Positions 47,591-61,865 of a DNA stretch of 64,000 nucleotides are shown here, piece after piece. The DNA comes from Myxococcota bacterium (GTDB lineage Bacteria; Myxococcota_A; UBA9160; SMWR01), in assembly GCA_036560145.1 (NCBI GenBank), contig DATBRV010000141.1, forward strand, positions 13,982 through 77,981. The letters run 5' to 3'. The position numbers and the translations under genes are program-made. The notes under the pieces were generated by a model. It made no database searches and was not told the origin of the DNA. It was given only the letters and a program-made list of their open reading frames with translations. Every line of letters begins with the position of its first letter. The stretch's first letter is position 1.

Positions 47591-47595
47591 GGGAG

Positions 47596-48696: not shown

Positions 48697-48798
48697 GCGG
48701 ACCTCGCTGGGGGGCGGCGCCCTGCCATTCTACGCTCATCGCTTCGTCATTTGGGGATTCGCGAGGCGGGCCGGGGGCTCGGGTATCCTCGCGCTCGC

Positions 48799-49656
48799 AT
48801 GCGGCACCTGCTCGCGAAGCTCCTCGGCGCTGGCGTCGCGCTCGGCGCAGGCTTCTCGCTCGCCGCGTCGGCGCGGGCGGACGACACTCCGCTGCGCTTC
48901 GAACGCGACGGCGTGCTGGTGCGGAGCCTCTCGCGCAGCGATCTCGAGGCCGGCTGCGGCGTGACGCGCGTCGAGGTCGCCGATCCCTATCACGGGAAGG
49001 CGAAGACCTATCTCGCGTTCCCGCTGGTCTGCGCGCTCGAGCTCGGCTTCGGCAAGCCGATCGCCGACTACCGCGGCGAGAATTTATTCCTGCGCGCGCG
49101 CGACGGCTACACCAGGCCCGCCAGCGGCGAGCGCCTCGCCGAGCCGGGCGGCTGGATTGCGTTCGCCGACGCCGGGCAGGCGGACCTCGGCTGGGAGAAG
49201 ATCGACCGCCGGCAGGTCGACCCGGGTCCCTTCTACCTGGTCTGGTCGGGGCCGGGCCAGGGCGATCCGCACCGCTATCCATGGCCATATCAGCTGGTGG
49301 CGATCGAGATCGCGCCCTTCGAAGCGCGCTATCCGCACACGATCCCCAGCGGCGTGCCGAAAGACTCGCCGGCCTGGATCGGGTTCGCGGTGTTCCGCTC
49401 CGAGTGCGTCGCGTGTCACGCGATCAACGGCGAGGGCGGGACGGTCGGCCCCGAGCTGAACCTCCCGCTCAGCATCGTCGAGTACCGGCCGGCCGAGCAG
49501 ATCAAGCGCTTCGTCCGGGATCCGGCGAGCTTTCGTTACTCGAGCATGCCCGCGAATCCGCAGCTCACGCCCGCGCAGCTGGACGGGCTGATCGCGTACT
49601 TCACGGCCATGCAGGCCCGCAAGCACGATTCCCGCCGCGCGCTACCCGCGCCTTGA
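48799..49656 (+). CDS. secreted protein with C-terminal c-type cytochrome domain
   Basis: ATG 48799 inside ORF 46468..49656. Signal peptide, heme-binding CVACH, and a distal SSMP (Met ligand candidate). Confidence 0.7.
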   Translation: MRHLLAKLLGAGVALGAGFSLAASARADDTPLRFERDGVLVRSLSRSDLEAGCGVTRVEVADPYHGKAKTYLAFPLVCALELGFGKPIADYRGENLFLRARDGYTRPASGERLAEPGGWIAFADAGQADLGWEKIDRRQVDPGPFYLVWSGPGQGDPHRYPWPYQLVAIEIAPFEARYPHTIPSGVPKDSPAWIGFAVFRSECVACHAINGEGGTVGPELNLPLSIVEYRPAEQIKRFVRDPASFRYSSMPANPQLTPAQLDGLIAYFTAMQARKHDSRRALPAP

Positions 49657-50349
49657 GTACGCGTGCCAGACGAAGGGCACGAAGAAGGCGTAGTAGAGCT
49701 GATTCGGGAAGGCGCGCAGCAGCCAGACGGGATCGAAGGAAGTCGCCAGCCAGATCGCGTCGCACCCCGCCCAGAGTGCGTAATAGACCGTGACGTAGTC
49801 GCACACGCGGCGCAGGAAGCGCAGCGTCGCGGGGTCGTCGACGTGTCTCGGGAGCCAGCGTCGGCCGAGCCAGATCGCGACGCCGGTGAAGAGCAGCTCG
49901 TGGATCAGCCAGAGCCGCTGCCCCGTCGGGTCGGGCGCCAGCCGCGCGAGAAGACCCTCGGTCGCATACGCGAGCAGCGGGACCACCGGCGTCGCCGCGG
50001 CCGCGATCCGCGCCCCGCGGCCGGCGTCGCGCAGCGCGATCGCCAGCACCAGCCAGTAGACCCGGAAATCGCCGAGCAGCACGAAGAGCAGCATCACGGC
50101 GGTGCCCAGCAGCGGGGGCGCGCCGAGCGCGCTCGTGAGCTTCGTGCCGACCAGCGGGTCGAGCAGCGTCTCGACCGCGAAGAGGATCGCCCAGGCGCGC
50201 ACGAAGCCCGCCTGCGCGGAGCTCGCGCCGACTTCGCGGGCCCGGCGCGAGAGCAGCAGGTAGACCAGGAACGCCGCCGGCACCGGAAGCAGCGACCAGA
50301 CGCTTTGCAGATCGCTCTGATAGAAGGCGCGCCAGCTCTCGAACCCCAT
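49642..50349 (-). CDS. hypothetical polytopic membrane protein
   Basis: ORF 49642..50349, with 6-7 hydrophobic helices. No family recognised. Confidence 0.45.
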   Translation of the reverse strand: MGFESWRAFYQSDLQSVWSLLPVPAAFLVYLLLSRRAREVGASSAQAGFVRAWAILFAVETLLDPLVGTKLTSALGAPPLLGTAVMLLFVLLGDFRVYWLVLAIALRDAGRGARIAAAATPVVPLLAYATEGLLARLAPDPTGQRLWLIHELLFTGVAIWLGRRWLPRHVDDPATLRFLRRVCDYVTVYYALWAGCDAIWLATSFDPVWLLRAFPNQLYYAFFVPFVWHAYSRRG

Positions 50350-50364
50350 CGGACCCGACTTTAG

Positions 50365-50414
50365 TGAACTCCGCTCGCCTGCGGCTCGCTGCGCGCGGGC
50401 TGGGGCCCGCTTGC
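50365..50414 (+). repeat. intergenic repeat copy B (core plus hairpin)
   Basis: tgaactccgctcgcctgcggctcgctgcgcgc, then hairpin gcgggc-tggg-gcccgc (50395-50410), then ttgcg. Sits in a divergent promoter region. Confidence 0.8.
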
Positions 50415-50461
50415 GTACGTCTTGTCGAACAGGAGCGCCCTTCGTGGATTAGACTCGCGGC

Positions 50462-53005
50462 GTGTCGGATCCCGCCGTTCCTGATCGCCCGTCGCTGCTC
50501 GCGCGGGTGCCGCCCGGCGGGAGCGACGACAGCGACGAGATCCTGGGCCGCTTCCTCGACTGGGTCGGCGAGCAGGGCCTCGAGCCCTACCCCCACCAGG
50601 AGGAGGCCTTTCTCGAGCTGATGCTCGGCCGGCACGTCGTGCTCAGCACGCCGACCGGCTCGGGCAAGTCATTGGTAGCCCTCTGCCTGCACTTCCAGGC
50701 GCTCTGCCGGGGGCAGCGCTCCTTCTACACGGCGCCGGTCAAGGCGCTCGCCAGCGAGAAGTTCTTCTCGCTCTGCGCCGATTTCGGGCCCGACGCGGTC
50801 GGCATGCTGACCGGCGACGCCAGCATCAACGCCTCGGCAAAGATCCTGTGCTGCACGGCCGAGGTGCTCGCCAACATGGCGCTGCGCCAGGGCGAAGCGC
50901 TGGACGCGCCCCACGTGGTGATGGACGAGTTCCACTTCTACGCCGATCGCGAGCGCGGCGCCGCCTGGCAGATCCCCCTGCTGCTGCTCCCGCGCACGCG
51001 CTTCCTGCTGATGTCGGCGACGCTCGGCAACACGGCGGTGATCGAGGAGCACCTGCGCGATCGCACGCAGCTCGCCGTCGCACACGTGCATTCCGAGCAG
51101 CGCCCGGTCCCGCTCGACTTCGAGTACCGCGAGACGCCGATCCACGAGACCCTATCTGAGCTGGTCGCGCAGGGGCGCGCGCCCGTCTACGTGGTGAACT
51201 TCACGCAGCGCGAGTGCGGCGAGCTCGCGCAGGGGCTCACCAGCGCCAACTTCTCGACGCGCGAGGATCGCGCGCGGATCGCGGAGGCGATCGGCGGCTT
51301 CCGCTTCGACACGCCCTACGGCAAGGACCTGGGCCGCATCCTGCGCCACGGGATCGGCGTGCATCACGCGGGGCTGCTGCCCCGCTACCGGCTGCTGGTG
51401 GAAAGGCTGGCGCAGCGCGGTCTGCTCCAGGTCGTGTGCGGCACGGACACGCTCGGCGTGGGCGTCAACATCCCGATCCGCACGGTGCTCTTCTCCAAGC
51501 TCTGCAAGTTCGACGGCGAGAAGGTCGCGATCCTGCGCGTGCGCGAGTTCCGACAGATCGCCGGCCGCGCGGGGCGCAAGGGCTTCGACGTGCGCGGCAG
51601 CGTGGTCGCCCAGGCCCCCGAGCACGTGATCCTGAACATTCGCGAGGCCGCGCGTCCGGGGGCGAAGAAGAACGCGCCCAAGAAGAAGCCGCCGCGCGGC
51701 TTCGTGCCCTGGACCCGCGCCACCTTCGACAAGCTGATCGCGAGCCCGCCGGAGATGCTCGCCTCGGTCTTCGACGTGAACCACGGAATCCTGGTGCATC
51801 TGCTCCAGCGGCCCGACGCAGGCGGGCCGCGCGGCGAGGGCTGGCGAGCGGTGGCCCGGCTGATCGCGCTCAGCCACGAGACGCCCGCCTCGAAGGCGCG
51901 CCTGCGCCGGCGCGCCGCGCAGCTGGTGCGCTCGCTGCGCCACGCCGGCATCGCTGAGATCACGCGCGACGCCGCGCGCAGGCCCGGTCTGCGCGTGAAG
52001 GAATCCCTCCAGCTCGACTTCTCGCTCTTCGCGACGCTCTCGCTCTACCTGGTCGAGGCGGTGCAGGCCCTCAGCCGCGAATCGACGAGCTACGCGCTCG
52101 AGCTGATCTCGCTGGTCGAGGCGATCCTCGAGAACCCGATGCCGATCCTGTTCGCGCAGCGGGACCGCGCGCGCGACGAGAAGATCGCGCAGCTCAAGGC
52201 CGAGGGCGTTCCCTACGAGGACCGGATCCGGCAGCTGGAGGGCGTCAGCTGGCCCCAGCCCGAGGCCGAGTTCATCGCCGCAAGCTTCCGGGTGTTCGCC
52301 GCGAACCACCCCTGGGTGGGCGAGGCGGACATCCATCCGAAGGGCGTGGCGCGCGAGATGTTCGAGGGCTGCCAGGGCTTCGTCGACTGCGTGCGCGAGC
52401 TCGGCGTGGGCCGCAGCGAGGGGACGCTGCTGCGCTACCTCTCGCAGGTTCACGACACGCTGGTGCGCAGCGTGCCGGACGCGGACAAGACCGAGGCGGT
52501 CGACGACGCGATCGCCTACTTCCGCACCCTGATCCAGGGCGTCGACGCGAGCCTGCTCCAGGCCTGGGAGGCGCTGCGCGCGCCGGTGGCCGCGGCGGCT
52601 TCCGCAGCTCCGCCCCCGCCCTACGATCTGGCCGAGCACCCGCGCGCGCTGACGGCGCGCGTGCGCGCCGAGCTGCACGCCCTCGTGCGCTCTCTCGCCC
52701 GCAAGGAATGGGAGGAGGCGGCCGCCTGCGTGCGCCAGGGCCCCGAGGATCCCTGGGAGCCGGATCGCTTTGCGCTCGCGCTGGCGCCGTTCCTCGAGGA
52801 ATACGGGCAGCTCGATTTCACGCCCGCGGCCCGGCTCGCGCATCTCACGCGGATCGCGGCGGCGGGCCCGCGCCGCTGGCAGGCGTCCCAGGTGCTCGTC
52901 GATCCCGCCGGCGACGGGCTCTGGGCGCTGCACGCCGAGGTCGATCTCTCGCGGGAGAAGGATCCCCGAGGGCCGCTGATCCGGTTGCTGCGGATCGGGA
53001 CCTGA
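50462..53005 (+). CDS. DEAD/DEAH-box (Ski2-like) helicase with DUF3516-type C-terminal region
   Basis: ORF 50462..53005 (GTG start). TPTGSGKS, MDEFH, MSATLGN, HHAGLLP, AGRAGRKG. Confidence 0.9.
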   Translation: MSDPAVPDRPSLLARVPPGGSDDSDEILGRFLDWVGEQGLEPYPHQEEAFLELMLGRHVVLSTPTGSGKSLVALCLHFQALCRGQRSFYTAPVKALASEKFFSLCADFGPDAVGMLTGDASINASAKILCCTAEVLANMALRQGEALDAPHVVMDEFHFYADRERGAAWQIPLLLLPRTRFLLMSATLGNTAVIEEHLRDRTQLAVAHVHSEQRPVPLDFEYRETPIHETLSELVAQGRAPVYVVNFTQRECGELAQGLTSANFSTREDRARIAEAIGGFRFDTPYGKDLGRILRHGIGVHHAGLLPRYRLLVERLAQRGLLQVVCGTDTLGVGVNIPIRTVLFSKLCKFDGEKVAILRVREFRQIAGRAGRKGFDVRGSVVAQAPEHVILNIREAARPGAKKNAPKKKPPRGFVPWTRATFDKLIASPPEMLASVFDVNHGILVHLLQRPDAGGPRGEGWRAVARLIALSHETPASKARLRRRAAQLVRSLRHAGIAEITRDAARRPGLRVKESLQLDFSLFATLSLYLVEAVQALSRESTSYALELISLVEAILENPMPILFAQRDRARDEKIAQLKAEGVPYEDRIRQLEGVSWPQPEAEFIAASFRVFAANHPWVGEADIHPKGVAREMFEGCQGFVDCVRELGVGRSEGTLLRYLSQVHDTLVRSVPDADKTEAVDDAIAYFRTLIQGVDASLLQAWEALRAPVAAAASAAPPPPYDLAEHPRALTARVRAELHALVRSLARKEWEEAAACVRQGPEDPWEPDRFALALAPFLEEYGQLDFTPAARLAHLTRIAAAGPRRWQASQVLVDPAGDGLWALHAEVDLSREKDPRGPLIRLLRIGT

Positions 53006-53058
53006 GCGCCCCATCCGCGCGGGGACCCGATACACTCCGGGGCCTCGCGGAGGTTCCC

Positions 53059-53298
53059 ATGCGTCCGGCCATTTGGATTGCCGCGCTGTCGCTGCTGTGC
53101 GCCTGTGCGAGCAGCTGGGATCAGGGCTGGGAGAGGCCCGGCGCGAGCGCCGCCGACTTCGAGCGCGAGCGGCGCGAGTGCCTCCAGAGCTCCGCCCAGG
53201 GGCGGGGCTCCGGGCAGTTCGGCTACGACCAGCCCGACCAGCGGCTCTTCGCGACGTGCATGCAGCAGCGCGGCTGGCAACGCGACCCATCGCAGTAG
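53059..53298 (+). CDS. small lipoprotein (unknown)
   Basis: ATG 53059 preceded by GGAGG, inside ORF 52708..53298. Lipobox LLCAC; 79 aa. Confidence 0.5.
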   Translation: MRPAIWIAALSLLCACASSWDQGWERPGASAADFERERRECLQSSAQGRGSGQFGYDQPDQRLFATCMQQRGWQRDPSQ

Positions 53299-54603
53299 GT
53301 GGCGCGCCCTCCCGTCCGACGCCCGCGCCGCGCGCGCCTCGCGCTGATGGCGCTGCTGCTGGCGGCCGCGCCGCTCGCGTGCTCGTTGGGGGGCCCGAAG
53401 CCGCCGCAGCGCCTGATCCTGATCGTGATCGACACGCTGCGGCGCGATCACCTCGGCGTGTACGGCGCGCCCGCACCGACCCCCAACATCGATGCGCTCG
53501 CCGCCCGCGGACAGCACTTCACGAACGTGGTGGCGTCGTTCCACCAGACGACGATGTCGATGGGCTCGCTCTTCACCGGCCGCACGCCGAGCTACGAGGC
53601 GGGCGACGCCCGCGTGCTTGCCTGGAACGGGGACAACTGGTGCGGGCTCGCGCGCCTCGCCCTCACGCCCAGCTCGGACGCCTGCGTTCCCCCGGGCGTG
53701 CCGACGCTCGCGGAAGGGCTGCGCGAGGCCGGTTATTGGACGATCGGCGTCGCCTCGAACCAGTTCCTGTACGAGCCCTCCGGCTTCTCGCGCGGCTTCG
53801 ACGATTGGCTCCAGGTGGACGATCGGCCGCCCGTCGCGGGCAAGGCCTCGCGCCAGCGCCTCGCGAACGCCCACCAGTCGCGCACCTGGCACTCCGTGAA
53901 CCGCGCGGCCATCGCCGCGCTCAACCGCCGGCCGCGCGACCGATTCTTCCTCTACGTGCACTACGTCGACGTACACGACTATCTGTTCCAGAAGGTCACC
54001 TACGCCGCGGCGGTCCAGGACATGGACCAGGGCGTGGGCCGGCTGCTGGGGCAGCTCGAGTCCGCCAGGCTGCTGGAGGGCGCGGTGGTGGTGCTGGTGT
54101 CGGATCACGGCGAGCAGCTCGGCGAGCTGCACAACTTTCCGGGCGAGCTCCCGAAGTCGTTCGGCCACTACGGAAATCCCTCGTTCCAGGAGCAGCTGCG
54201 GATTCCGCTGATCGTGGCGCCCGCGCGCTTCGCGGATCCCGATCGGTTCCTGCGCAGCCAGGACGTCTTCCAGCTGCTGCTCGAGATCGGCGGCGTGAAG
54301 CGGGAGCCTTCGCGCGACCTCGAGCCGGACGAGCTCTTCGTCGGGGAGGCCAACTACCGCACCTATCGCCGCGGGCGCTGGAAGAGCTTCCTGCGCCGCG
54401 AGGACGGGCGGCACTTCCTCTACGACCTCGAGGCGGATCCGCAGGAGCGGAGCGACGTCGCGGCGAAGTTCCCCGAGGTGGCCGCCGAGCACGTCGAACG
54501 CATCGACCAGCTGACGCGCGGCCTGGCGGCGAAGGCCGCCTCGCAGCGCGGGCTGACCGAGAGCGAGCGCGAGCGGCTGCGCGCTCTCGGTTACCTCGAT
54601 TGA
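53299..54603 (+). CDS. sulfatase-fold (alkaline-phosphatase superfamily) lipoprotein lacking the Cys/Ser-x-Pro-x-Arg motif
   Basis: ORF 53299..54603 (GTG directly after the upstream TAG). Lipobox PLAC, IVIDTLRRDHLG, TTMSMGSLFTGR at the nucleophile position, VSDHGE. Confidence 0.8.
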   Translation: MARPPVRRPRRARLALMALLLAAAPLACSLGGPKPPQRLILIVIDTLRRDHLGVYGAPAPTPNIDALAARGQHFTNVVASFHQTTMSMGSLFTGRTPSYEAGDARVLAWNGDNWCGLARLALTPSSDACVPPGVPTLAEGLREAGYWTIGVASNQFLYEPSGFSRGFDDWLQVDDRPPVAGKASRQRLANAHQSRTWHSVNRAAIAALNRRPRDRFFLYVHYVDVHDYLFQKVTYAAAVQDMDQGVGRLLGQLESARLLEGAVVVLVSDHGEQLGELHNFPGELPKSFGHYGNPSFQEQLRIPLIVAPARFADPDRFLRSQDVFQLLLEIGGVKREPSRDLEPDELFVGEANYRTYRRGRWKSFLRREDGRHFLYDLEADPQERSDVAAKFPEVAAEHVERIDQLTRGLAAKAASQRGLTESERERLRALGYLD

Positions 54604-54654
54604 GCTTCGCTCGCCTGCGGCTCGCTGCGCGGCCGCTGAGGACAGCGGCCTTGC
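54601..54654 (+). repeat. intergenic repeat copy C (core plus hairpin)
   Basis: tgagcttcgctcgcctgcggctcgctgcgc, then hairpin ggccgctg-agga-cagcggcc (54631-54650), then ttgc. It starts with the sulfatase stop codon and lies between convergent genes. Confidence 0.8.
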
Positions 54655-54661
54655 ATGACGC

Positions 54662-55345
54662 TCAGCGCTGACGACGCGACTTGCGCTTCGGGCGCGGCCG
54701 CTTCGCTTCCTGCTTCTGGCGCGCCTTCGAGGCTGCCCAGGAGCAGATCCGGCAGCTCGCGAGATCGTGCCCGCGCGCCGGACAGTGCTGCCGTCCGAAC
54801 AGGATGATCTGGAGGTGCAGGCGGCCCCAGGCCAGCGGCGGATACAGCTTCTTGAGGTCGCGCTCGGTCTGCTCGACCGACCGGCCGTTCGAGAGGCCCC
54901 AGCGGGCGGCCAACCGGTGGATGTGGGTGTCGACCGGGAAGGCGGGCTGGCCGAAGGCCTGCGCCATCACGACGCTGGCGGTCTTGTGGCCCACGCCGGG
55001 CAGCGCCTCGAGCGCTTCGAAGTCGGCGGGCACCTGCCCGCCGTGCTTCCCGATCAGGAGCTTCGAAAGGCCCGCGATCGCCTTGGCTTTCGCCGGCGAG
55101 AGACCGCAGGGGCGGATCACGCGCCGGATCTCCGCGACCGGCAGCTTCGCCATCGCCTCCGGCGTCGCGGCGCGGGCGAACAGGAGCGGCGTGATCTGGT
55201 TCACCTTGACGTCGGTGCACTGCGCGGAGAGGAGCACGGCGATCAGCAGGGTGTACGGATCCCGGTGCTCGAGGGGGACCTTGACCTCGGGGTAGACGTC
55301 GTCGAGGATCCGGCGGATCCGACGGGCTTTGTCCGCGCGCTTCAC
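54662..55345 (-). CDS. nth: endonuclease III
   Basis: ORF 54662..55345 (GTG start). HhH-GPD LPGVGHKTASVV, VDTHIHRLA. C-terminal Cys cluster region and a Lys/Arg-rich tail. Confidence 0.93.
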   Translation of the reverse strand: MKRADKARRIRRILDDVYPEVKVPLEHRDPYTLLIAVLLSAQCTDVKVNQITPLLFARAATPEAMAKLPVAEIRRVIRPCGLSPAKAKAIAGLSKLLIGKHGGQVPADFEALEALPGVGHKTASVVMAQAFGQPAFPVDTHIHRLAARWGLSNGRSVEQTERDLKKLYPPLAWGRLHLQIILFGRQHCPARGHDLASCRICSWAASKARQKQEAKRPRPKRKSRRQR

Positions 55346-55386
55346 GAGGGCCCGAGTATAACTTGGAGCGAGGGCCGGGAGACGGA

Positions 55387-55743
55387 ATGACGATACCCGG
55401 AAGCAGCGGCCTTGCGGCGCGGCGCTGCGTGCCTTGCCGTGGCGGGACGCCGCCGCTGCGCGGCGAGCCGCTCGCGGCGCTGCTCGGCGAGCTCGGCGGC
55501 GGCTGGCGCGCGGTGGACCAGCATCACCTCGAGAAGGAGTTCCGCTTCCGCGATTTCGCCGGCGCGCTCGCCTTCGCGAACCGGATCGGCGCGCTCGCGG
55601 AGGAGCAGTCGCACCATCCGGATCTGCACCTGGCCTGGGGGAAGCTCGGCGTCGCGATCTGGACCCACAAGATCGACGGCCTCACCGAGAGCGACTTCGT
55701 GTTCGCTGCGAAGATCGATCAGCTGTTCGCAGAACTCGCCTGA
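55387..55743 (+). CDS. 4a-hydroxytetrahydrobiopterin (pterin-4a-carbinolamine) dehydratase
   Basis: ATG 55387 inside ORF 55363..55743. EEQSHHPDL...WTH motif. Confidence 0.88.
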   Translation: MTIPGSSGLAARRCVPCRGGTPPLRGEPLAALLGELGGGWRAVDQHHLEKEFRFRDFAGALAFANRIGALAEEQSHHPDLHLAWGKLGVAIWTHKIDGLTESDFVFAAKIDQLFAELA

Positions 55744-55744
55744 A

Positions 55745-55797
55745 TGAACTTCGCTCGCCTTCGGCTCGTTGCGCGCGCGGCTCGCGCCGCGCTTGCT
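55745..55797 (+). repeat. intergenic repeat copy D (core plus hairpin)
   Basis: tgaacttcgctcgccttcggctcgttgcgc, then hairpin gcgcggc-tcgc-gccgcgc (55775-55792), then ttgct. Lies between convergent genes. Confidence 0.8.
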
Positions 55798-56513
55798 CAG
55801 CCGCCGGTCTCCGCTTCGACGCGCCGCATGTAGGCGACCAGGCCGGGGCGGGAGTTCAGGAGCTGCGCGGAGTCGGGCATCGAGCCGTGCTCGACGGAGC
55901 GCAGCATCGAGTAGACCGCGAGGTCCGCCATGCTCGGGCGCTCGGCGTAGAAGAAGGGCCGCGTGCCGAGCAGGTTCACCAGGTCGTCGAGGCGATCGGC
56001 CATGCCGCGCACGATCGCGGTCTCCGGCCGCTCCCAGGTGCCTCCCGCGCGCAGCCAGGCGAACAGCCGGCGCAGCATCGCGATCCGCGCGAGTCCGCCC
56101 CGCTTCGGCGCGGCGGCTTCCGCCGCCTCCCGCTGCGCCTTGACCCGCTGCCAGCGCAGGAAATAGAAGAGGAAGGACTCGTCGGCCCAGTCTTCGAGCT
56201 GGCGCTGCTGGAGCGCGATCTTGGGCTCGCTCGCCAGCAGCGGCGGGTTCGGAAAGCGCTCGTCGAGGCGCAGCAGGATCGCGGTCGAATCGTGGGTCCG
56301 CTCGCCGTCGATCGTCAGCACGGGAAGCAGGCCGGTGTCGGGGCTCCAGCGCTTGAAATCCTCGGGGCCCGAGGGCTCGAAGAGATCGAAGGCGAGGCCC
56401 TTCATCAAGAGCGCGCGGCGCACCTTCTCCGTGAACGGCGTCTGCGACTGGCCGTAGAGGGCGATCTTGCGGCCCCCGCCCGCCGCCGCGCTCCCAGAAG
56501 ACTTGTCCGTCAC
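55797..56513 (-). CDS. glutathione S-transferase family protein
   Basis: GTG 56513, 13 nt after the upstream stop, inside ORF 55797..56609. Thioredoxin-like N-domain (LYGQSQTPFTEKVRRALLMKGL...LPVL) and a helical C-domain. Confidence 0.72.
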   Translation of the reverse strand: MTDKSSGSAAAGGGRKIALYGQSQTPFTEKVRRALLMKGLAFDLFEPSGPEDFKRWSPDTGLLPVLTIDGERTHDSTAILLRLDERFPNPPLLASEPKIALQQRQLEDWADESFLFYFLRWQRVKAQREAAEAAAPKRGGLARIAMLRRLFAWLRAGGTWERPETAIVRGMADRLDDLVNLLGTRPFFYAERPSMADLAVYSMLRSVEHGSMPDSAQLLNSRPGLVAYMRRVEAETGG

Positions 56514-56526
56514 CTGGCCCGCTCCG

Positions 56527-57306
56527 TCAGCCGCCGGTCTGGCGGCGACCCCGCTCCTGCACCGCGCCCCGCCGCGTCGCCACCAGCTCGGGCGTGATCC
56601 CCTTGGCAAATTCTTTTGAGACGCGCGCCTCGAGGCGCAGCCCCTCTTCGAAGGTGGTCGCGAAGCCGGCGTCGATCACCTGCTTGTAGCCCCGCAGCGA
56701 GGCCGGATCGCAGGAGAGCATGTCCGCGGCCAGCTGCCGGCAGGCGCCGAGCAGCTCGGCCGGCGCCACCACGCGGTTCACGAGCCCCCAGGCGAGCGCC
56801 TGCTCGGCGCCGATGAAGTTCCCGGTGAAGGAGAGCTCCTTGGCCCGCCCGATTCCGATCAGCCGGGGGAGCTTCTGGGAGAGGCCCCAGCCCGGCAGGA
56901 TGCCGACACGCGCATGCGTATCTGCGAAGCGGGCCTCGCTGGACGCGATCAGCAGATCGCAGGCGAGCGCGAGCTCGAAGCCGCCGGTGATGGCGAAGCC
57001 GTTCACGGCGCCGATCACCGGCCCGGGGAAGCCGCGGATCGCGGCCATCATGTCGGCGTCGGTGAAGGCGCCGAGCGGCTGCGAGCCCCGGCTGCCGAGT
57101 TCTTTGAGGTCGAGCCCCGCGCAGAAGGCCTTGCCCGCGCCGGTGAGGATCGCGACCCGGACCGAGTCGTCCTGCGCAAGCTCGCGGAAGCCCTGGGTGA
57201 GGGCCTGGCGCAGCTCGTGCGAGAGCGCGTTCATCGCCTGGGGGCGGTTCAGGGTCAGGCAGGCGACCCCGGCGTTCTTCTCCACCATCAGGACGGGCGA
57301 GGACAT
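56527..57306 (-). CDS. enoyl-CoA hydratase/isomerase (crotonase) family
   Basis: ORF 56527..57306; GGAGG RBS. GAGKAFCAGLDL, GFAITGGFELALACD. Confidence 0.92.
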   Translation of the reverse strand: MSSPVLMVEKNAGVACLTLNRPQAMNALSHELRQALTQGFRELAQDDSVRVAILTGAGKAFCAGLDLKELGSRGSQPLGAFTDADMMAAIRGFPGPVIGAVNGFAITGGFELALACDLLIASSEARFADTHARVGILPGWGLSQKLPRLIGIGRAKELSFTGNFIGAEQALAWGLVNRVVAPAELLGACRQLAADMLSCDPASLRGYKQVIDAGFATTFEEGLRLEARVSKEFAKGITPELVATRRGAVQERGRRQTGG

Positions 57307-57420
57307 GGGGGACCTCCGGGCGGGCAGAAGCGCGAGGATACGGGGCGCGCGCGGCCCGCGCGAGCGCCCGTCGCCGCGCGAGGATGACTCCGCGGGACGC
57401 TTCCGTCACAATCCGCGCCG

Positions 57421-57786
57421 ATGGCGCCGCCGCGCAATCCGGGAAGCTACGCGCGCATCCATGCGGTGGTGCGGCGAATCCCGCGCGGGCGCGTGGCCAC
57501 CTACGGGCAGGTCGCGGCGCTCGCGGGCCTGCCGGGTCAGGCGCGCCAGGTCGGCTACGCCCTGCACGCGCTCGCCGAGGGGAGCCCCGTGCCGTGGCAG
57601 CGGGTGGTGAACGCGCAGGGCGAGGTGAGCCCCCGGCGCATGCCCGGCTGGGACGGCCTACAGCGCGCGCTGCTCGAGCGCGAGGGGATCGACTTCGACG
57701 CGCGCGGCCGCATCGACCTCGAGAGCCGGCGCTGGCGCCCGCGCGCGGGAGCGGGCGGGCGGCGCGCCGCACACGGCTTCGCGTGA
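57421..57786 (+). CDS. MGMT-family DNA-binding protein lacking the acceptor Cys (alkyltransferase-like, ATL)
   Basis: ORF 57421..57786. IPRGRVATYGQVA helix-turn-helix region; VPWQRVV in place of the PCHRV active site. Confidence 0.82.
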   Translation: MAPPRNPGSYARIHAVVRRIPRGRVATYGQVAALAGLPGQARQVGYALHALAEGSPVPWQRVVNAQGEVSPRRMPGWDGLQRALLEREGIDFDARGRIDLESRRWRPRAGAGGRRAAHGFA

Positions 57787-59264
57787 GGCGGATCGCGGGG
57801 CTCGCCGCCGTCGCGCTCGCGCTGCTCCTGCTCGTGCTCGGGATCCGCACCGCCGCGCTGGGCTCGCGCCGGCCGGCGGTGGCCGCGGCCCCCGTCGTGG
57901 TCATCGACGAAGCAGCGGCGGCGCGCCGGCTCGCCGGCGGCCTGCGCCTGCGCACCGTGTCGACGGAAGACCGGGCGGCCGCCCTCGGCGCGCAGTTCGA
58001 GGCCTTCCGCGCCTACCTCGAGCGCAGCTACCCGCGGCTCCACGCCGCGCTCTCGCGCGAGCTCGTGGACGGCGCCAGCCTGCTCTACACCTGGAAGGGT
58101 CGACAGCCCGAGCTGCCGGCGCTGCTGCTGCTCGCGCACCAGGACGTGGTGCCCGTCGAAGCGGGAACCGAAGCCAGCTGGGCGCATCCGCCCTTCGAGG
58201 GCGTGATCGACGCCGGCTACGTGTGGGGACGCGGCGCGGCCGACGACAAGGGCAACCTCTTCGCCATCCTGGAGGCGGTCGAAGGCCTGCTCGCCGAGGG
58301 CTTCACGCCCGAGCGCACGCTGCTGCTCGGCTTTGGCCACGACGAAGAAGTCGGCGGCGAGGGCGCCCAGGCGATCGCGGCGCGGCTCGCGAGCCGCGGG
58401 GACGCGATCGAATCCGTGCTCGACGAGGGCGGCGCGATCGTGCAGGGCGCCGTGCCGGGCGTCGCGACGCCGCTCGCGATGATCGGAACGGCGGAGAAGG
58501 GCTCGCTGACGATCGATCTCTCGGTCGAGATCGAGGGAGGCCACTCTTCGACGCCGCCCCGCCACACCGCGATCGGCATCCTCGCGGCCGCCTTGACCCG
58601 GCTCGAGGCGAACCCGATGCCGGGCCGGATCGCGGGCCCGACCCGCGGCATGGCCGATCGGCTCGCCCCCGAGCTCGGCCTGCCGTTCCGGGTGGTGCTC
58701 GCGAACCTCTGGCTGTTCGGGCCGGTGCTCGAGCTCGCAATGGCCGGCCAGCCGCCGCTCGACGCGCTGCTGCGCACCACCACCGCCGTCACCATCGCGA
58801 GCGGCGGGGTGAAGGAGAACGTGCTCCCGGCACGGGCGAGCGCCGTCGTGAACTTCCGGATCCTGCCGGGCGACACCGTCGAGGACGTGGTGGCGCACGT
58901 GCGCCGCGTGGTCGGCGACGAGCGGATCCAGATCCAGCCCGGCGTCCGCAGCACGCCGCGCAATCCGACCCCGGAATCGCCGGTGGACGATCCCAGCTTC
59001 GCGCGTCTCGCGCTGACGGTCGGGGAGATCTTTCCCGGCGTGCCCGCGGTTCCCTTCCTGGTGCTGGGCGGGACCGACGCGCGGCACTATGCGGAGCTGA
59101 CGCCGCGGCTCTACCGTCTGAGCCCCTTCCTCTTCGAGATGGGGGACCTGAAGCGGGTGCACGGCACCGACGAGCGGCTCTCGATCGCGAGCCTCGCGGA
59201 CGGCGTGCGCTTCTTCCGGCGCCTGATCGAGAATTCCGCGCCCGCTCAGCCGCCTTCGCCGTAG
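57783..59264 (+). CDS. M20/M25/M40 family peptidase (membrane-anchored)
   Basis: GTG 57783 forms a GTGA overlap with the ATL stop, inside ORF 57384..59264. TM anchor, HQDVVP, GAADDKG, GHDEEVGG. Confidence 0.85.
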   Translation: MRRIAGLAAVALALLLLVLGIRTAALGSRRPAVAAAPVVVIDEAAAARRLAGGLRLRTVSTEDRAAALGAQFEAFRAYLERSYPRLHAALSRELVDGASLLYTWKGRQPELPALLLLAHQDVVPVEAGTEASWAHPPFEGVIDAGYVWGRGAADDKGNLFAILEAVEGLLAEGFTPERTLLLGFGHDEEVGGEGAQAIAARLASRGDAIESVLDEGGAIVQGAVPGVATPLAMIGTAEKGSLTIDLSVEIEGGHSSTPPRHTAIGILAAALTRLEANPMPGRIAGPTRGMADRLAPELGLPFRVVLANLWLFGPVLELAMAGQPPLDALLRTTTAVTIASGGVKENVLPARASAVVNFRILPGDTVEDVVAHVRRVVGDERIQIQPGVRSTPRNPTPESPVDDPSFARLALTVGEIFPGVPAVPFLVLGGTDARHYAELTPRLYRLSPFLFEMGDLKRVHGTDERLSIASLADGVRFFRRLIENSAPAQPPSP

Positions 59265-60109
59265 CGCGCCAGCGCCGCGTCGTAGGCGTCGAAGCCGACC
59301 AGCTCGCGCAGCTCCGCGAAATCGAGCAGCCGCGGCGGCGGCTCGCCGCGCGCGAGCGCCGCGAGCGCGTCCTGCATGGCGCGGATGGCGGAGGAGAGCA
59401 GCGTGAGCGGGTACGCGGCGATCCGAAAGCCCAGCGCCTCGAGGCTCGCCGGCGGGAGCAGGGGCGTGTCGCCTCCTTCGACCAGGTTGGCGAGCTGGCG
59501 AGCGGGGATCTCCCGGCAGATCCGCTGCATCTCCGCCTCGGAGCGGGGCGCCTCCACGAACACGATGTCGGCGCCCAGATCGGCGAAGGCGCGTCCGCGC
59601 CAGATGGCTTCGTCGAGCCCGATCGGCCCGCGCGCGTCCGTGCGGGCGAGCACCAGCACGTCCGCCCCCTGCTCGCGCGCGTCGACCGCGGCGCGTACGC
59701 GCGCGAGCGCCTCCTCGCGCGAGACGACCTGCTTGCCGCGCGTGTGCCCGCAGCGCTTGGGCGCGAGCTGGTCCTCGATCATCACGCTCGCGAAGCCCGC
59801 CGCGGCGTAGCCGGAGACCGTGCGTCGCACGTTCATGGGATTCCCGTAGCCGGTGTCGGCGTCTCCGATCACCGGGATCGAGACGGCGGCGCAGATGCTG
59901 CGCCCCTGCTCGACCATCTCGCCGTAGGAGATCAGCCCGGTGTCGGGCAGCGCCAGCCGGGCCGCGGAGACCGCGAAGCCGCTCATGAAGGTGAGCTCGA
60001 AGCCGGCCCGCTCGACGAGTTTCGCCGAGAGCGCGTCGAAGCAGCAGGGCATCACGCGCAGTCCGGGGCGGTCGAGAAGCCGCCTCAGCCTGGCGGCGGA
60101 TGAATCCAT
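59246..60109 (-). CDS. isocitrate lyase/PEP mutase superfamily enzyme (lyase-type)
   Basis: ORF 59246..60109; AGGAGG RBS. GDADTGYG and the catalytic-loop KRCGH motif. Lies 31 nt downstream of the kinase gene on the same strand. Confidence 0.88.
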   Translation of the reverse strand: MDSSAARLRRLLDRPGLRVMPCCFDALSAKLVERAGFELTFMSGFAVSAARLALPDTGLISYGEMVEQGRSICAAVSIPVIGDADTGYGNPMNVRRTVSGYAAAGFASVMIEDQLAPKRCGHTRGKQVVSREEALARVRAAVDAREQGADVLVLARTDARGPIGLDEAIWRGRAFADLGADIVFVEAPRSEAEMQRICREIPARQLANLVEGGDTPLLPPASLEALGFRIAAYPLTLLSSAIRAMQDALAALARGEPPPRLLDFAELRELVGFDAYDAALARYGEGG

Positions 60110-60140
60110 CGTCGTCTCCTCCTGGCGGGGAGGAGATTAC

Positions 60141-61865
60141 CTAGACCGGCAGCCGGATGCAGAACGTGCTGCCGACGCCGACCTTCGAGGTCACGGTGAT
60201 CTCGCCGCCGTGGTGGCGGACGATCTGGTAGCAGTGGGCGAGGCCGAGGCCGGCGGCGGTGCCGGTGCGGCGGGTCGTAAAAAAAGGATCGAAGATCCGC
60301 TCGATCTGGTCCTCGGGAATCCCGCAGCCGTCGTCCTCGACCCGGATCCGCACGAAGTCGCCCTGCGCTTCGGTCACCAGGCGGATCACGCCGAAGTCGC
60401 CCACCGCCTGGAGCGCGTTGAGCAGCAGGTTCAGGAAGACCTGGCGGAGCTGCTGCGCGTCGCAGCGCACGGGAGGCAGCTCGGCGTAGCAGCGCTCGAC
60501 CACCACCGAGAACGAGAGCGCCGCCACGTTGACCGCGTTCTCGAGCAGATCGTTCACGCTCGCGAGCTGCGGCGCGCCGAGGCCGGCCTGCGAGAAGGCG
60601 CTCACCTCCCGCACGATGGTGGCCACGCGCTCGACGCCCTCGCCCGACTCCTCGATCAGGTCGGCGCCCTCGATCAGCACCGGCGCGAGCAGCTCGTCCC
60701 GGGCGTCGACGCCGACGGCGAGCGCGCGCCACTGCTCGCGCAGCTCGATCAGGTTGGCGCGCACGTCCGTGACGGGCTCGTCGATCTCCTGCGCGATCCC
60801 GGCCGCCAGCTCGCCCACCGCGGCCAGCCGCCCGGAGGTGATCAGCCGATTTCGCAGCGCCGCCACCTCGCGCAGGTCCCGGACGGCGAGCACGCGGCCG
60901 ATCACGTCGCGCTGCTCGTCGTGCAGCGGCGAGGCCGAGACCGAGACCGGCATCGGCGCCGATGCCTGTGGCCGCAGGTCCAGCTCGACTCCCCGGGACG
61001 CGGCCGCGCAGTCGCGCGCCAGCCCCGGCAGCCACTGGTAGACCGCCGCGTCGGCGAGCTCGGCCGGCGCGATGCCGACCAAGCGCGCGAAGGCCTCGTT
61101 GCAGGTCCGGATCCGGCCGTCCGGGTGCAGCAGCACGACGCCGTCGCGAAGCGTTTCGAGGATCGGGCGGGCGAAGGCGCCGGGCGCGAGCAGGAAGTAG
61201 CCGTGGCGGCGCACGCTTCCCGCCACGATCGCGCCGAGCGCCAGCAGGCTCATGCTCCCAAGCCTCGGCACGTCGATCGCGAGCAGGGGCAGCAGCGCGT
61301 CGGTTACCGAAGCGACCGCGAGCGGGGCGAGGATGCCCGCCAGCAGCCAGCGCGCCTCGCGGCGCTCGCCGGGCGACACCGTGGGCGGGAACAGGCTGGG
61401 CCACTGCGCGATCACGAAGCCGGTGCTCACGGCCGTCGGCAGGTACACGAGCGGGAAGAGCGGGCCGAAGCGGACCCCCCAGCCCAGGCTCGTCCGCACC
61501 GGCTCCGCGAGACACCAGGGCGTGGCGACGTAGAGCAGGATGGAGGCGACCGCGCAGGCGTACGCCCAGGGCAGCGCGCGGCGCAGCCCGGTGTTGGCGC
61601 CGCCCACCAGCTCCGAGATGATGTGCAGGGTGAGCGGGCCGAGCCACATCCATCCGAGCGAGGAGAGCCGGACCCATTGCAGGACCCGCCGCGGGTCGTC
61701 CGAGAGGCTCCAGAACACCTCGCACAGCGACCAGTGCGCCGAGCAGAGGAGCACGATCGCGACCAGGCGGTTGGCCCGCTGCTTCGAGTTGATCGCGAGC
61801 AGCGCCACCGCGAGCATCACCGCGGCCAGGCTCGCGACGAGCTGGACGATCGCGAAGGGGTGCAT
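60141..61865 (-). CDS. 7TM-PAS sensor histidine-kinase paralogue lacking the phospho-acceptor His
   Basis: ATG 61865 (TGATG overlap with the upstream kinase stop) inside ORF 60141..63665. Multi-TM N-terminus and a PAS domain. H-box reads AAGIAQEIDEP (CAG at 60789-60791). N-box and G-boxes are intact (FLNLLLNALQA, DDGCGI, GLGLA). Confidence 0.85.
   Translation of the reverse strand: MHPFAIVQLVASLAAVMLAVALLAINSKQRANRLVAIVLLCSAHWSLCEVFWSLSDDPRRVLQWVRLSSLGWMWLGPLTLHIISELVGGANTGLRRALPWAYACAVASILLYVATPWCLAEPVRTSLGWGVRFGPLFPLVYLPTAVSTGFVIAQWPSLFPPTVSPGERREARWLLAGILAPLAVASVTDALLPLLAIDVPRLGSMSLLALGAIVAGSVRRHGYFLLAPGAFARPILETLRDGVVLLHPDGRIRTCNEAFARLVGIAPAELADAAVYQWLPGLARDCAAASRGVELDLRPQASAPMPVSVSASPLHDEQRDVIGRVLAVRDLREVAALRNRLITSGRLAAVGELAAGIAQEIDEPVTDVRANLIELREQWRALAVGVDARDELLAPVLIEGADLIEESGEGVERVATIVREVSAFSQAGLGAPQLASVNDLLENAVNVAALSFSVVVERCYAELPPVRCDAQQLRQVFLNLLLNALQAVGDFGVIRLVTEAQGDFVRIRVEDDGCGIPEDQIERIFDPFFTTRRTGTAAGLGLAHCYQIVRHHGGEITVTSKVGVGSTFCIRLPV

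Follow-up and report, generated by a model that had tools for sequence, protein, structure and literature searches.

A REP/MITE-like intergenic repeat of uncultured Myxococcota with a near-invariant arm and copy-specific hairpins

We have identified five copies (A, B, C, D and E) of a non-coding repeat of 42–55 nt, spread between genes, in a 64-kb stretch of DNA (the window) from an uncultured soil myxobacterium. The unit comprises, in this order, (T)GAN, a 27-nt arm (CTYCGCTCG-S-CTNCG-S'-CTCGCTGCGCG) that contains a small first hairpin (HP1), a second hairpin (HP2) and a terminal TTGC. The copies, the segments adjoining two of them and one doubtful candidate are listed below, with neighbours taken from gene calls and Pfam.

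11650–11705, plus strand: copy F, doubtful; ATGAG, HP1-like GCC-TCC-GGC and a distal TTGC, no HP2.
30324–30365, plus strand: copy A; atgac, core 30329–30355 (G..C variant of HP1), minimal HP2 G-C-TCC-G-C, TTGC; between tandem minus-strand SDR and PEMT genes and antisense to both.
47598–47639, minus strand: copy E; ccgta, core 47634–47608 (G..C variant), minimal HP2 G-C-TTC-G-C, TTGC; between convergent CobW and Zn-ADH genes.
47637–47670, minus strand: module U, a hairpin CGGGTCCC-GGCGCGGG-aacgg-CCCGCGCC-ACCCG, upstream of and fused to copy E.
50364–50414, plus strand: copy B; gtgaa, core 50369–50395 (C..G variant), HP2 GCGGGC-tggg-GCCCGC, TTGC; in a divergent region between the gene for an unknown protein and the DEAD/DUF3516 helicase gene, upstream of the latter.
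54600–54654, plus strand: copy C; ttgag, core 54605–54631, HP2 GGCCGCTG-agga-CAGCGGCC, TTGC; between convergent sulfatase and nth genes.
55731–55743, plus strand: possible truncated 5' piece of another unit, GAACTCGCCTGA = GAACT[tcgct]CGCCTG.
55744–55796, plus strand: copy D; atgaa, core 55749–55775, HP2 GCGCGGC-tcgc-GCCGCGC, TTGC; between convergent pterin-4a dehydratase and GST genes.

A 25-nt core pattern with up to three mismatches matched the window at exactly five places (0.01 expected from shuffles), nhmmer gave E ≤ 2e-7 for each of copies A–E, and a covariance model run with filters off scored them at 50–64 bits, the rest of the window remaining below 27 bits throughout. The five core copies proposed in the initial annotation are thereby confirmed, as are the gene contexts described there (A tandem, B divergent, C, D and E convergent) and, exactly as first given, the hairpins of B, C and D, including GGCCGCTG-agga-CAGCGGCC of copy C. 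Copies A and E had been described as devoid of the insert found in the others; both have HP2 in a minimal 2-bp form, and the 'insert' of B, C and D is therefore a lengthened stem and no insertion. Contact with gene ends is close: the final base of copy A is shared with the stop codon TAG of the SDR gene (CTA at 30365–30367), the TGA stop of the sulfatase gene (54601–54603) lies inside copy C, and the GST stop (TCA at 55797–55799) follows directly after copy D. The core of D has a single mismatch, T at 55769, which is polymorphic within the species. We saw no sign that C and D bracket the nth/pterin gene pair as a unit, as had been suggested; they occupy two neighbouring convergent junctions.

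Beyond the window the core is over-represented as well: it occurs at 116 or more loci in metagenome-assembled genomes (MAGs) of uncultured Myxococcota, 47 of which carry it. The comparison loci were 8-kb segments amounting to 0.86 Mb (0.92 Mb with the window). There were 164 exact cores and merely 17 more at up to three mismatches, with one decoy match among the matches listed. About 130 distinct sites lie away from locus edges; 102 of them are intergenic and the remainder fall mostly in the last 7–32 nt of a gene. Most copies are solitary, with tandem arrays at four loci (6 × 44 nt in L116, 3 × 72 in L107, 3 × 45 in L023 and 3 × 53 in L085) and an inverted doublet at L035. A CRISPR array was considered for these and rejected, as the tandem arrays repeat the 'spacer' too and most copies stand alone.

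HP1 is a 3-bp hairpin with a 3-nt loop (G-S-C / TNC / G-S'-C) inside the arm, which also has an invariant GC-TGC-GC. With a search pattern that admitted all four combinations of S10 and S16, this middle pair was C:G in 98 copies, G:C in 65, G/G in two and C/C in none, i.e., complementary in 163 of 165, and the loop base N13 was found as all four bases in both S10/S16 backgrounds. HP2 is built differently. Its closing G:C pair is fixed, the arm's final G pairing with the C that precedes TTGC, and its loop is usually a TNC triloop, whereas the stem is free in sequence and in length (2 to more than 10 bp). In 84% of copies, TTGC or TAGC is found no more than 30 nt from the core, versus 9% of random positions. 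We counted 108 distinct HP2 stems, 53 of which are perfect with loops of 3–4 nt; a single MAG holds 16 distinct stems among its 19 non-tandem copies, and the window five among five.

Predicted folding energies are no better than those of shuffles (z from +1.2 to −2.3, in sequence of 72–78% GC), and the case for structure rests on covariation and not on energy. Across 146 distinct copies, 98.5% of the pairs are standard versus 74.6% in shuffles, and double-sided changes occupy 219 cells versus 85 (none of 500 shuffles reached 219). The four inner pairs of HP2 all form in 52% of copies versus 4.6% when the arms are permuted (0 of 2000 permutations reached the observed value), and G-U pairs number a handful among more than 600 helix-2 cells. 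The proposal that structure is kept while sequence changes is thus well founded, matched arms far exceeding exchanged ones. Together with their non-coding nature, the covariation and the hairpin-arm pairing also uphold the central reading of the copies as a REP/MITE-like intergenic family; the copies are neither fragments of a single duplicated gene end nor coding.

Comparison with relatives shows that the four copies B, C, D and E were gained. The locus L122, which aligns with the window at approximately 90% nucleotide identity over 19 kb, is free of any copy, and the alignment breaks exactly at these four places: the 73-nt segment 47598–47670 (copy E with module U) is absent and site B is empty. 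Site C is empty in L118–L122, including four contigs of which two come from one sample, and the nth and sulfatase genes overlap there by 13 nt. Copy D is missing from two close relatives, L120 and L121, whose GST and pterin genes share 4 nt. On contigs from the same species as the window, C and D are present as identical copies. As the 90% relative lacks copies B–E and the convergent genes overlap there at C and D, the insertions are recent and the gene ends remodelled; over a sequence divergence of about 10%, the element has been active enough to part overlapping convergent genes and to give housekeeping proteins new C-termini. Among approximately 30 element sites with a syntenic partner locus, the partner has a copy at four, one of which is inverted. 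The gained segments at B, C and E exceed one unit, by about 24–35 nt on the 3' side of B and C and by module U on the 5' side of E (seven of the eight U modules in the data set lie directly 5' of a core), which is not predicted under strict cut-and-paste of a fixed unit.

Terminal inverted repeats are absent, the 5' CTYCGCTCG and the 3' CTTGC being non-complementary. The 3' boundary is sharp, with information content falling to zero directly after TTGC. No flanking direct repeat of 3–5 nt stands out at any offset (at best 8 of 156 copies, raw count), and comparing filled with empty sites at the four positions likewise reveals no target duplication. In the 5' flank there is a weak T..A / TGA(N) signal: 51% of copies have T at −4 and 45% have A at −1, and two registers, TNGA and NTGAN, occur directly before the boundary. 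The empty sites C and E carry TGA at the junction, but the GA of copy B came with the insert. Neither a transposase or HUH gene nor any gene family enriched beside the copies was found in the 0.86 Mb of loci. A tblastn search of the 0.92 Mb with IS200 TnpA and Escherichia coli RAYT queries gave only noise, the best match being a KH-domain protein.

The two strands of the element differ in their loops. HP1, the invariant GC-GCA-GC and most HP2s present C-GNA-G loops on the complementary strand; perfect triloops on the core strand comprise 25 TNC and no GNA. Mini-hairpins of the d(GCGNAGC) type melt at 70–76 °C, the RNA version is much weaker, and GNA mini-hairpins occur in single-strand DNA signals, namely the G4 origin, RSF1010 ssiA and the N4 vRNAP promoter (PMC13037366). 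The base N is free in the loops of the element, as in the published motif, but each of the known signals is an individual functional site of a phage or plasmid and not a dispersed chromosomal repeat. Both the scarcity of G-U pairs and the restriction of TNC and GNA loops to opposite strands favour DNA over RNA, and since the loops of the complementary strand correspond to the stable C-GNA-G motif, we infer that the element works as folded single-stranded DNA on that strand. The match to a hyperstable, DNA-specific motif makes such single-stranded action open to a direct biophysical test. IS200/IS605-type ends have an orientation tied to the lagging-strand template. In the window, a weak positive GC skew would assign that template to the TNC strand instead of the GNA strand in four of the five copies, but it is too weak to count or to assign replication strands.

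The repeat belongs to a known kind of element, REP/MITE-like, in an unusual build that combines a near-invariant arm with a copy-specific hairpin. Like the REP/BIME-RAYT elements of Proteobacteria, it is short (20–65 nt), high in copy number, extragenic and hairpin-forming, sits in operon spacers and convergent junctions, forms occasional inverted doublets and tandem clusters, has neither terminal inverted repeats nor target duplications, and shows strand-specific features suggesting recognition as single-stranded DNA. By definition, the palindrome of a REP ends on one side in the tetranucleotide GTAG or CGTC (PMC3733652). This tag is absent here, the ends reading (T)GAN-CTYC.../...CTTGC and, on the other strand, GCAAG.../...GRAG; moreover, the REP palindrome is conserved, whereas here an invariant, unpaired 27-nt arm holds the sequence information and the main stem is free. 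Genomes with REPs have a RAYT gene (a Y1 HUH transposase), usually with REPs on its flanks; in the loci and window (0.92 Mb) none was found. The hairpins of IS200/IS605 ends and of REPs are subterminal and are recognised in single-stranded form, together with guide and target tetranucleotides (PMC6006769). With IS200/IS605 ends and PATEs the repeat shares subterminal hairpins (HP1 lying about 8 nt inside the 5' end and HP2 4 nt inside the 3' end), strand specificity and the lack of inverted repeats and target duplication. Where IS200/IS605-type ends abut a fixed target tetra- or pentanucleotide on the left, the repeat shows a weak preference for a short 5' motif (T..A / TGA). It differs in that the whole unit is only 42–55 nt long, its two hairpins are dissimilar, the segments gained are of unequal extent, HP2 is variable in both sequence and length where IS hairpins keep their sequence, and no TnpA or TnpB gene was seen.

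MITEs (Correia/NEMIS, ERIC, RUP, Nezha) are likewise non-autonomous, intergenic and often co-transcribed, and may provide neighbouring genes with a start or stop codon or modify their ends, but they are defined by the terminal inverted repeats and target duplications that are missing here. Integron attC sites are recognised as folded single strands, as proposed here, by structure over sequence, and lie just after stop codons, and their variable terminal structure, a mere 3-nt loop in some and a long or branched stem in others, resembles the range of HP2. However, R''/L'' pair with L'/R' in attC, whereas the conserved arm here is unpaired with the 3' end; the consensus has no RYYYAAC / GTTRRRY (AAC/GTT) core; and the copies are dispersed in both orientations and do not form a cassette array beside intI. 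Among rolling-circle elements, the 3' end of Helitrons consists of a hairpin and CTRR, and IS91 has the target CTTG/GTTC; an unconserved GC-rich hairpin just before a short conserved CTTGC or CTAGC, with no inverted repeats or target duplication, offers a lead in this direction. In our element, unlike Helitron/IS91 ends, the hairpin abuts the terminus instead of lying 10–12 nt away, the whole is tiny and no Y2 Rep gene was seen.

That the family is a mobile structured non-coding repeat is very likely, and we regard it as probable, in the fuller sense, that it is a small non-autonomous, recently mobile, REP-like intergenic repeat of uncultured Myxococcota acting as folded single-stranded DNA. 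A trans-acting enzyme would read the invariant arm by its sequence and HP2 by its shape, and would place copies in short intergenic spacers and at the 3' ends of genes, leaving the target unduplicated. By analogy with REP/RAYT, a HUH/Y1 single-strand transposase would be the most plausible type, and we put forward a HUH-type enzyme tentatively. The architecture separates a putative sequence-read part, the 27-nt arm, from a shape-read part, HP2, with its fixed closing pair and loop type and its free stem, and the variation of stems from copy to copy would constitute a natural mutational scan of a putative enzyme recognition site.

The origin of the stems invites a bolder suggestion, which we consider unlikely, that HP2 is rebuilt at or right after each insertion by an undescribed mobilising mechanism. 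Within a genome almost every extended stem is unique, and only the minimal 2-bp form is common and recurs in different genomes; the extended stems are perfect Watson-Crick palindromes, wobble intermediates being almost absent; and three of the four copies absent from the approximately 90% relative already have unique stems of 6–8 bp. A palindrome-generating process at the fixed C-GNA-G mini-hairpin would fit such rebuilding, with fold-back synthesis, template-switch synthesis and off-centre hairpin opening as candidates. If true, this would be a new route to programmed sequence diversity in a bacterial mobile element.

A modest chance may be given to a cis-acting RNA element, in which a 3' UTR or intercistronic hairpin stabilises the upstream mRNA, terminates transcription or directs processing, like E. 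coli REP/BIME, with the conserved arm as a protein or RNase binding site and mobility as merely the means of spread. HP2 stems of 6–10 GC pairs would be stable in RNA too, yet the G-U pairs that an RNA helix tolerates are almost absent. Among co-directional genes, de-duplicated copies are antisense in 47 cases and sense in 20 (p=0.0013); this bias shows that transcription has a bearing on the element, and a role as RNA is therefore conceivable. However, the strand that is most often mRNA-sense bears the GNA loops, stable in DNA and weak in RNA, and 30% of the co-directional and all convergent copies show the other strand to at least one transcript. Copies sit in short stop-to-start gaps (median 43 and 59 nt), and the minimal 2-bp hairpin accounts for only 5 of 50 copies at convergent sites and gene 3' ends as against 24 of 90 at tandem or divergent sites, which would fit an RNA role, but eleven copy-bearing intergenic regions are divergent promoter regions. 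The terminator module once proposed is not borne out: after the hairpin comes CTTGC or, on the opposite strand, CGCGCAGC, with no T/U run, and no terminator-like match in 47000–56500 coincides with a copy. Rfam had no match in the window at gathering thresholds, and at E up to 10 positions 54560–55840 gave sub-threshold matches alone, all well below gathering scores.

Selection on each copy, and not recent transposition, would account for the family if it were a domesticated single-stranded-DNA signal, whose C-GNA-G hairpins are exposed on the non-template or lagging-template strand and read by a host primase, primosome, polymerase or nucleoid protein. This is very unlikely. The 27-nt core is indeed near-invariant across 47 MAG species, the GNA loop geometry is confined to one strand, and GNA mini-hairpins are known from priming signals and the N4 promoter, but positions are not conserved (the relative at 90% ANI is empty at four of four sites, and of 30 syntenic sites about 26 have no copy in the partner), and this turnover explains the lack of decayed copies without selection on each of them; a candidate protein was not identified.

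Still less can be said for a duplex operator of a global regulator or nucleoid protein, with the palindrome incidental, which we regard as highly improbable. The invariant core does repeat CTCG directly at a spacing of 11 nt, one helical turn (CTCG...CTCG), and this half-repeat would be the binding site, but promoter regions are avoided (divergent regions hold 11% of copies, although they account for 15% of the number and 26% of the length of intergenic regions), most copies follow stop codons, the S10/S16 covariation and the copy-specific palindromes would have no role, and tandem arrays and recent insertions indicate mobility. A coding role, as a mini-ORF or duplicated gene 5' end of the type M-[NST]-[FS]-A-R-L-R-L-A-A-R, is refuted for the family as a whole: core variants are all synonymous R-L-R codons in the frame TTC GCT CGS CTN CGS, copies A–D have an in-frame ATG, GTG or TTG, and a real gene (5540–6595 in L116) and possibly the window gene at 11650 begin with the repeat peptide, but codons leave CGC..CGC in 0 and CGG..CGG in 2 of 165 copies unexplained, just 33 of 177 copies have an in-frame start, downstream ORFs are equally long in the three frames (median 74, 62 and 71 codons), HP2 lengths favour even numbers and not multiples of three, most copies are antisense to genes and the frame of TTGC differs between copies.

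In the full-text literature we found no REP-like element described for Myxococcota, and the REP/HUH literature compared makes no mention of this group; the repeat thus adds a well-defined family to Myxococcota, here known from MAGs alone. It is relevant to gene calling and to strain-level comparison of these MAGs, and the 27-mer core is a specific marker for this clade.

Copy F, initially listed as a diverged copy, is doubtful, with an nhmmer E-value of 0.32, 26.5 bits in the covariance model and the second hairpin not found. It forms the in-frame coding start (MSFARLRLGALLL...) of a conserved membrane-protein gene, and its similarity to the repeat is partly shared by the N-termini of homologues of that protein. 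The segment 55731–55743 encodes the final residues ELA and the stop of pterin-4a dehydratase, whose C-terminus reads ..LFAARG in relatives versus ..LFAELA in the window; judged by its sequence, it is possibly the remnant 5' piece of a further unit.

The repeats of the window belong to a genuine, statistically solid and recently mobile family of non-coding structured elements. With 3 mismatches allowed, a 25-nt core pattern matched the window in exactly the five places claimed by the initial annotation, against 0.01 matches expected from dinucleotide shuffles. A profile HMM built from the copies of other genomes found the same five with E = 7e-10 to 2e-7 (next matches, E >=0.2), and a covariance model of the element, run with filters off, gave 50-64 bits for copies A-E, 26.5 bits for a doubtful sixth copy, F (11650-11705, + strand), and <16 bits for everything else. 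The gene contexts previously described for the five copies agree with our gene calls (codon log-odds caller, coding fraction 0.90) and with Pfam:

30324-30365, + strand: copy A, between the tandem genes SDR and PEMT
47598-47639, - strand: copy E, between the convergent genes CobW and Zn-ADH
50364-50414, + strand: copy B, between the divergent genes for an unknown protein and a DEAD/DUF3516 helicase
54600-54654, + strand: copy C, between the convergent genes for sulfatase and endonuclease III (nth)
55744-55796, + strand: copy D, between the convergent genes for pterin-4a dehydratase and GST

Each unit comprises a weak (T)GAN, a 27-nt arm, a hairpin (HP2) and a terminal TTGC, sometimes TAGC. Across the core-aligned copies the arm reads C1-T-Y-C-G-C-T-C-G9-S10-C-T-N13-C-G-S16-C17-T-C-G-C-T-G-C-G-C-G27, with Y3, S10, N13 and S16 as the only variable positions. 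Information content is zero directly after TTGC and fades on the 5' side across ~4-9 nt. The arm holds a first hairpin, HP1, of 3 bp (G9:C17, S10:S16, C11:G15) with a T-N-C loop. All four S10/S16 combinations were permitted by the search pattern; C..G occurred in 98 copies, G..C in 65, G..G in 2 and C..C in none, and loop base N13 takes all four bases in both S10/S16 backgrounds. HP2 is closed by arm G27 and the C preceding TTGC. About half of the 108 distinct HP2 sequences form a perfect stem (2-10 bp) with a loop of 3-4 nt, and in the remaining ones an outer stem encloses a further hairpin; the minimal G-C-TTC-G-C occurs most often. The hairpins spelled out earlier for copies B, C and D are exact, while copies A and E, described as lacking one, in fact both carry HP2 in its minimal 2-bp form. 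Since this minimal form exists, what had been regarded as an insert is a longer version of an ever-present stem.

The proposal that structure is kept while sequence is free was borne out by the covariation of both hairpins, assessed with permuted arms and shuffles. All four inner HP2 positions were paired in 52% of 94 distinct HP2s, compared with 4.6% when 3' arms were swapped between copies, and none of 2000 arm permutations reached the observed value. When 146 distinct copies were aligned to the covariance model, a fitting procedure biased towards the structure, standard pairs made up 98.5% of cells (74.6% in shuffles) and both-side changes were seen in 219 cells (85 in shuffles). The covariation score was 0.306 versus 0.075, and <=0.025 with partners slid, and the seed alignment agrees. 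One-sided changes and G-U pairs amount to a handful among >600 helix-2 cells; the HP2 stems are perfect Watson-Crick palindromes. A minimum-energy alternative for HP1, which employs the variable base N13, is contradicted by the covariation. Predicted folding energies did not differ from those of shuffles (z +1.2 to -2.3) in this sequence of 72-78% GC; energies are uninformative at such GC content, and the evidence for structure is therefore that from covariation.

The loops are strictly asymmetric: of the perfect triloops on the core strand, 25 are TNC and 0 are GNA. The complementary strand reads GCAA-G[stem-GNA-stem]C-GCGCAGC-GA-GSC-GNA-GSC-GAGCGRAG, so that HP2, the invariant GC-GCA-GC and HP1 each have a C-GNA-G loop. 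These loops with their free N are the same motif as the published d(GCGNAGC) mini-hairpin, in which N is any base and which melts at 70-76 C and resists exonucleases; hairpins of this type occur in single-stranded DNA signals such as the phage G4 origin, ssiA of RSF1010 (CCGAAGG) and the promoter of N4 virion RNA polymerase, and the RNA versions are far less stable (PMC13037366). With the free N and the near-absence of wobble pairs, the loop asymmetry would fit an element read as single-stranded DNA on its complementary strand.

Relatives of the window were collected through the endonuclease III protein and their sites compared base by base. One of them, contig_26414 of ENA metagenome assembly ERZ25039492 (L122), aligns to window positions 44,987-64,000 with 88-92% nucleotide identity and has zero copies, the alignment being interrupted at precisely the positions of copies E, B, C and D. 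At site E, L122 has TGA-GGGAGGC-TCA between the convergent stops, and the window has 73 nt more, consisting of the unit and an upstream hairpin module. At site C (54600-54664), nth and the sulfatase gene overlap by 13 nt in four contigs from relatives, two of them from one sample, whose nth is 89-95% identical to that of the window. At site D (55741-55799), the GST and pterin-4a dehydratase genes overlap by 4 nt in two relatives, CTAA serving as stop on both strands, and at site B a short divergent spacer is larger by ~75 nt in the window. At B, C and E, more than the length of one unit was gained. In L122 the helicase is split in two, the sulfatase has 235 aa (434 in the window) and the GST has 147 aa, although these genes are intact in the window, which suggests assembly frameshift errors; the calls of presence and absence are unaffected, because they are based on nucleotide alignment. 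The idea that C and D delimit a composite element with nth and the pterin dehydratase gene as its cargo was rejected, as the same gene pair occupies the same location in relatives without either copy.

Same-species contigs (nth 100% identical) have C and D unchanged except for the core mismatch of D. This T at 55769 is polymorphic within the species: the consensus C is found in the NCBI MAG contig L117, the T in three JGI contigs. Copy D has no other core mismatch, and this one weakens the invariant GC-TGC-GC mini-hairpin. Beyond these sites, two units occupy the counterpart in contig L051 of a 16-nt operon gap (window 31286-31301), at the 3' end of one gene the orientation of the unit in the window (copy A) is opposite to that in L040, and a copy in L083 is missing from L044 (89% identical). 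Altogether, ~30 element sites have a syntenic partner locus, and in only four does the partner also have a copy. These comparisons show that the family is gained often and recently. Neither target-site duplications nor terminal inverted repeats were found by flank analysis or in the comparison of filled and empty sites.

Among 185,579 species-representative genomes scanned, the core CTYCGCTCGSCTNCGSCTCGYTGCGCG was found at no fewer than 116 loci (>=116) in 47 assemblies, all those listed being MAGs of uncultured Myxococcota or 'delta proteobacterium'. The window, too, derives from a MAG of this kind: its endonuclease III is 100% identical to that of Myxococcota bacterium ('MAG TPA: endonuclease III') on GCA_044449805.1. 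The loci and the window together contain 164 exact cores and just 17 further ones at <=3 mismatches, with one match in reversed-sequence decoys; almost every copy is thus intact, and no stock of decayed ones is visible. Frequent turnover can explain this intactness, rather than selection on each copy. A phage or plasmid origin was rejected: IMG/VR has the core in two contigs only, no plasmid carries it and no plasmid match spans more than half of the query. Several MAGs titled 'uncultured Spirochaetales bacterium' (L003, L006, L022, L027, L035 and others; assemblies include CAZUYC01, CAYPSI01 and CAYTJA01), with ~70% GC, carry the Myxococcota repeat. Their loci have the same composition as the other core loci, and L022 is syntenic with, and 79% identical to, L114, which is titled 'Proteobacteria bacterium'; the taxonomic labels of these MAGs look wrong. 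The repeat family is clade-specific within the uncultured Myxococcota.

By their insertion, copies C and D pulled apart overlapping convergent genes and altered the ends of the encoded proteins. The pterin dehydratase C-terminus is ..LFAELA-stop in the window and ..LFAARG-stop in relatives, and its new codons, GAA CTC GCC TGA, resemble the 5' part of a further, truncated unit; in the nth product, the basic tail RRKKQRISQSR-stop of the relatives is replaced by PKRKSRRQR-stop. At ~24 loci a gene continues into a unit, reading its complementary strand, and ends within 7-32 nt. In L116 (5326-6595), a tandem array of six units with a 44-nt period follows a gene stop, and a gene for a membrane-anchored SGNH-like protein of 351 aa takes its start codon and initial residues (MNSARLRLALLYAAC...) from the last unit; this gene is missing at the orthologous site of L022 (1440-1720; flanks 83% identical). 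Exaptation of the repeat as the 5' end of a gene is a possible reading. Copy F may be a similar case, an old copy co-opted as a gene start, or a chance resemblance: a gene for a multi-pass membrane protein (11650-12921), whose ATG overlaps the upstream stop (ATGA), begins MSFARLRLGALLL..., and its first 56 nt are what scored 26.5 bits. The N-termini of its homologues are variable and some share RLG[AT]LLLA (e.g., MRHPHLRLGTLLL); this partly shared similarity makes F undependable as a family member.

Counting each intergenic region once, 67 sites are co-directional, 24 convergent and 11 divergent, a trend towards convergent and away from divergent regions that is not significant against the intergenic regions (p=0.09). 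At the co-directional sites, 47 copies are antisense and 20 sense (p=0.0013), so that the strand with the GNA loops is usually the mRNA-sense, non-template one. Copies occupy short gaps, the upstream stop lying at a median distance of 43 nt and the following start at 59 nt, and minimal hairpins are less frequent where genes converge or end (5/50) than elsewhere (24/90). These biases of orientation, gap and hairpin length indicate that transcription or translation shapes which insertions survive. In view of them, protection of 3' ends, as an RNA-level side effect of the element, is retained as a rival explanation.

Extended HP2 stems are nearly all unique within a genome (one MAG has 16 different stems in 19 non-tandem copies; 5/5 in the window), the HP2 forms common to many genomes are minimal ones only, and of the four copies whose recent gain was shown, three already have a unique perfect stem of 6-8 bp. 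Two explanations remain. There may be many sub-lineages, each spreading its own stem, with donors missed by thin sampling per genome; alternatively, stems may lengthen rapidly, in place or at insertion, by a palindrome-making process such as template switching at the mini-hairpin. A search of metagenome contigs for a donor of the copy C stem gave 0 matches, though JGI contigs with the exact sequence exist and are evidently missing from that collection. Derivation of the HP2 3' arm from the target was suggestive at site D alone (empty site TCGCCGCGC), was absent at B and C, and was dropped.

A coding function was taken seriously because all core variants are synonymous in the frame TTC GCT CGS CTN CGS CTC GCT GCG CGC (F-A-R-L-R-L-A-A-R) and start codons precede copies A, B, C and D (ATG, GTG, TTG and ATG, respectively). 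We rejected it, since coding explains neither the covariation at S10/S16 nor the avoidance of CGC..CGC and CGG..CGG; moreover, just 33/177 copies (19%) have an in-frame start, downstream ORFs have the same length in all three frames, HP2 lengths prefer even numbers without a period of three, and the majority of copies are antisense to adjoining genes. The Rfam search proposed by the initial annotation matched no family at gathering or permissive thresholds, and a tRNA/tmRNA search found none. The terminator module suggested there, and equally a sigma-70 promoter, are dismissed since no canonical site of either kind coincides with any copy, and the minimal form misfits the GG-N10-GC spacing of sigma-54 promoters (checked by hand). 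Two of the three terminator-like matches in the scanned region, at 49061 and 49510, lie within ~950 nt with no called gene (48697-49641), between the Zn-ADH gene and a 235-aa gene of unknown function.

The element is of a known kind, the small non-autonomous REP/MITE-like repeats. Like the ends of IS200/IS605 and REP/RAYT elements, which are handled as single strands by HUH enzymes (PMC6006769), it has neither terminal inverted repeats nor target-site duplications and carries a hairpin just within each end; it also shares with HUH-handled elements the strand-specific loops, a weakly preferred short 5' flank, tandem clusters and, now and then, inverted doublets (L035). Defining features of a REP are a GTAG or CGTC tag (PMC3733652) and a conserved palindrome; our element has neither tag, and its palindrome is not conserved, so that we describe it as working like a REP without calling it one. 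Its build, with an invariant and presumably single-stranded arm, a hairpin conserved in shape only and GNA mini-hairpin geometry, is unusual, and the literature searched contained no description of such an element. Clustering of 787 neighbouring proteins returned only common metabolic and regulatory paralogue families and no helper family enriched beside the copies. A crude tblastn/phmmer search for Y1 transposases across 0.92 Mb (loci and window), with IS200 TnpA and RAYT queries, found none and gave noise, the best match being a KH-domain protein.

Two REPIN/MITE-like composites are present in L035 (3022-3246 and 6385-6593), each a pair of inward-facing units ~190 nt apart, in which the inverted repeat reaches ~17 nt past the core (..CCCGATTTTA); a four-gene block on the minus strand lies between them. 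The hairpin module 5' of copy E ('U'; window 47637-47670, - strand) recurs in L029, L091, L097 and L107. Its outer parts, (C)GGGTCCC...CC(A/C)CCCG, are conserved, whereas the inner stem varies with compensation, and in 7/8 occurrences it lies 2-3 nt 5' of a core, often itself preceded by the CTTGC of another unit. Its design, a conserved frame around a free stem, parallels that of the main element.
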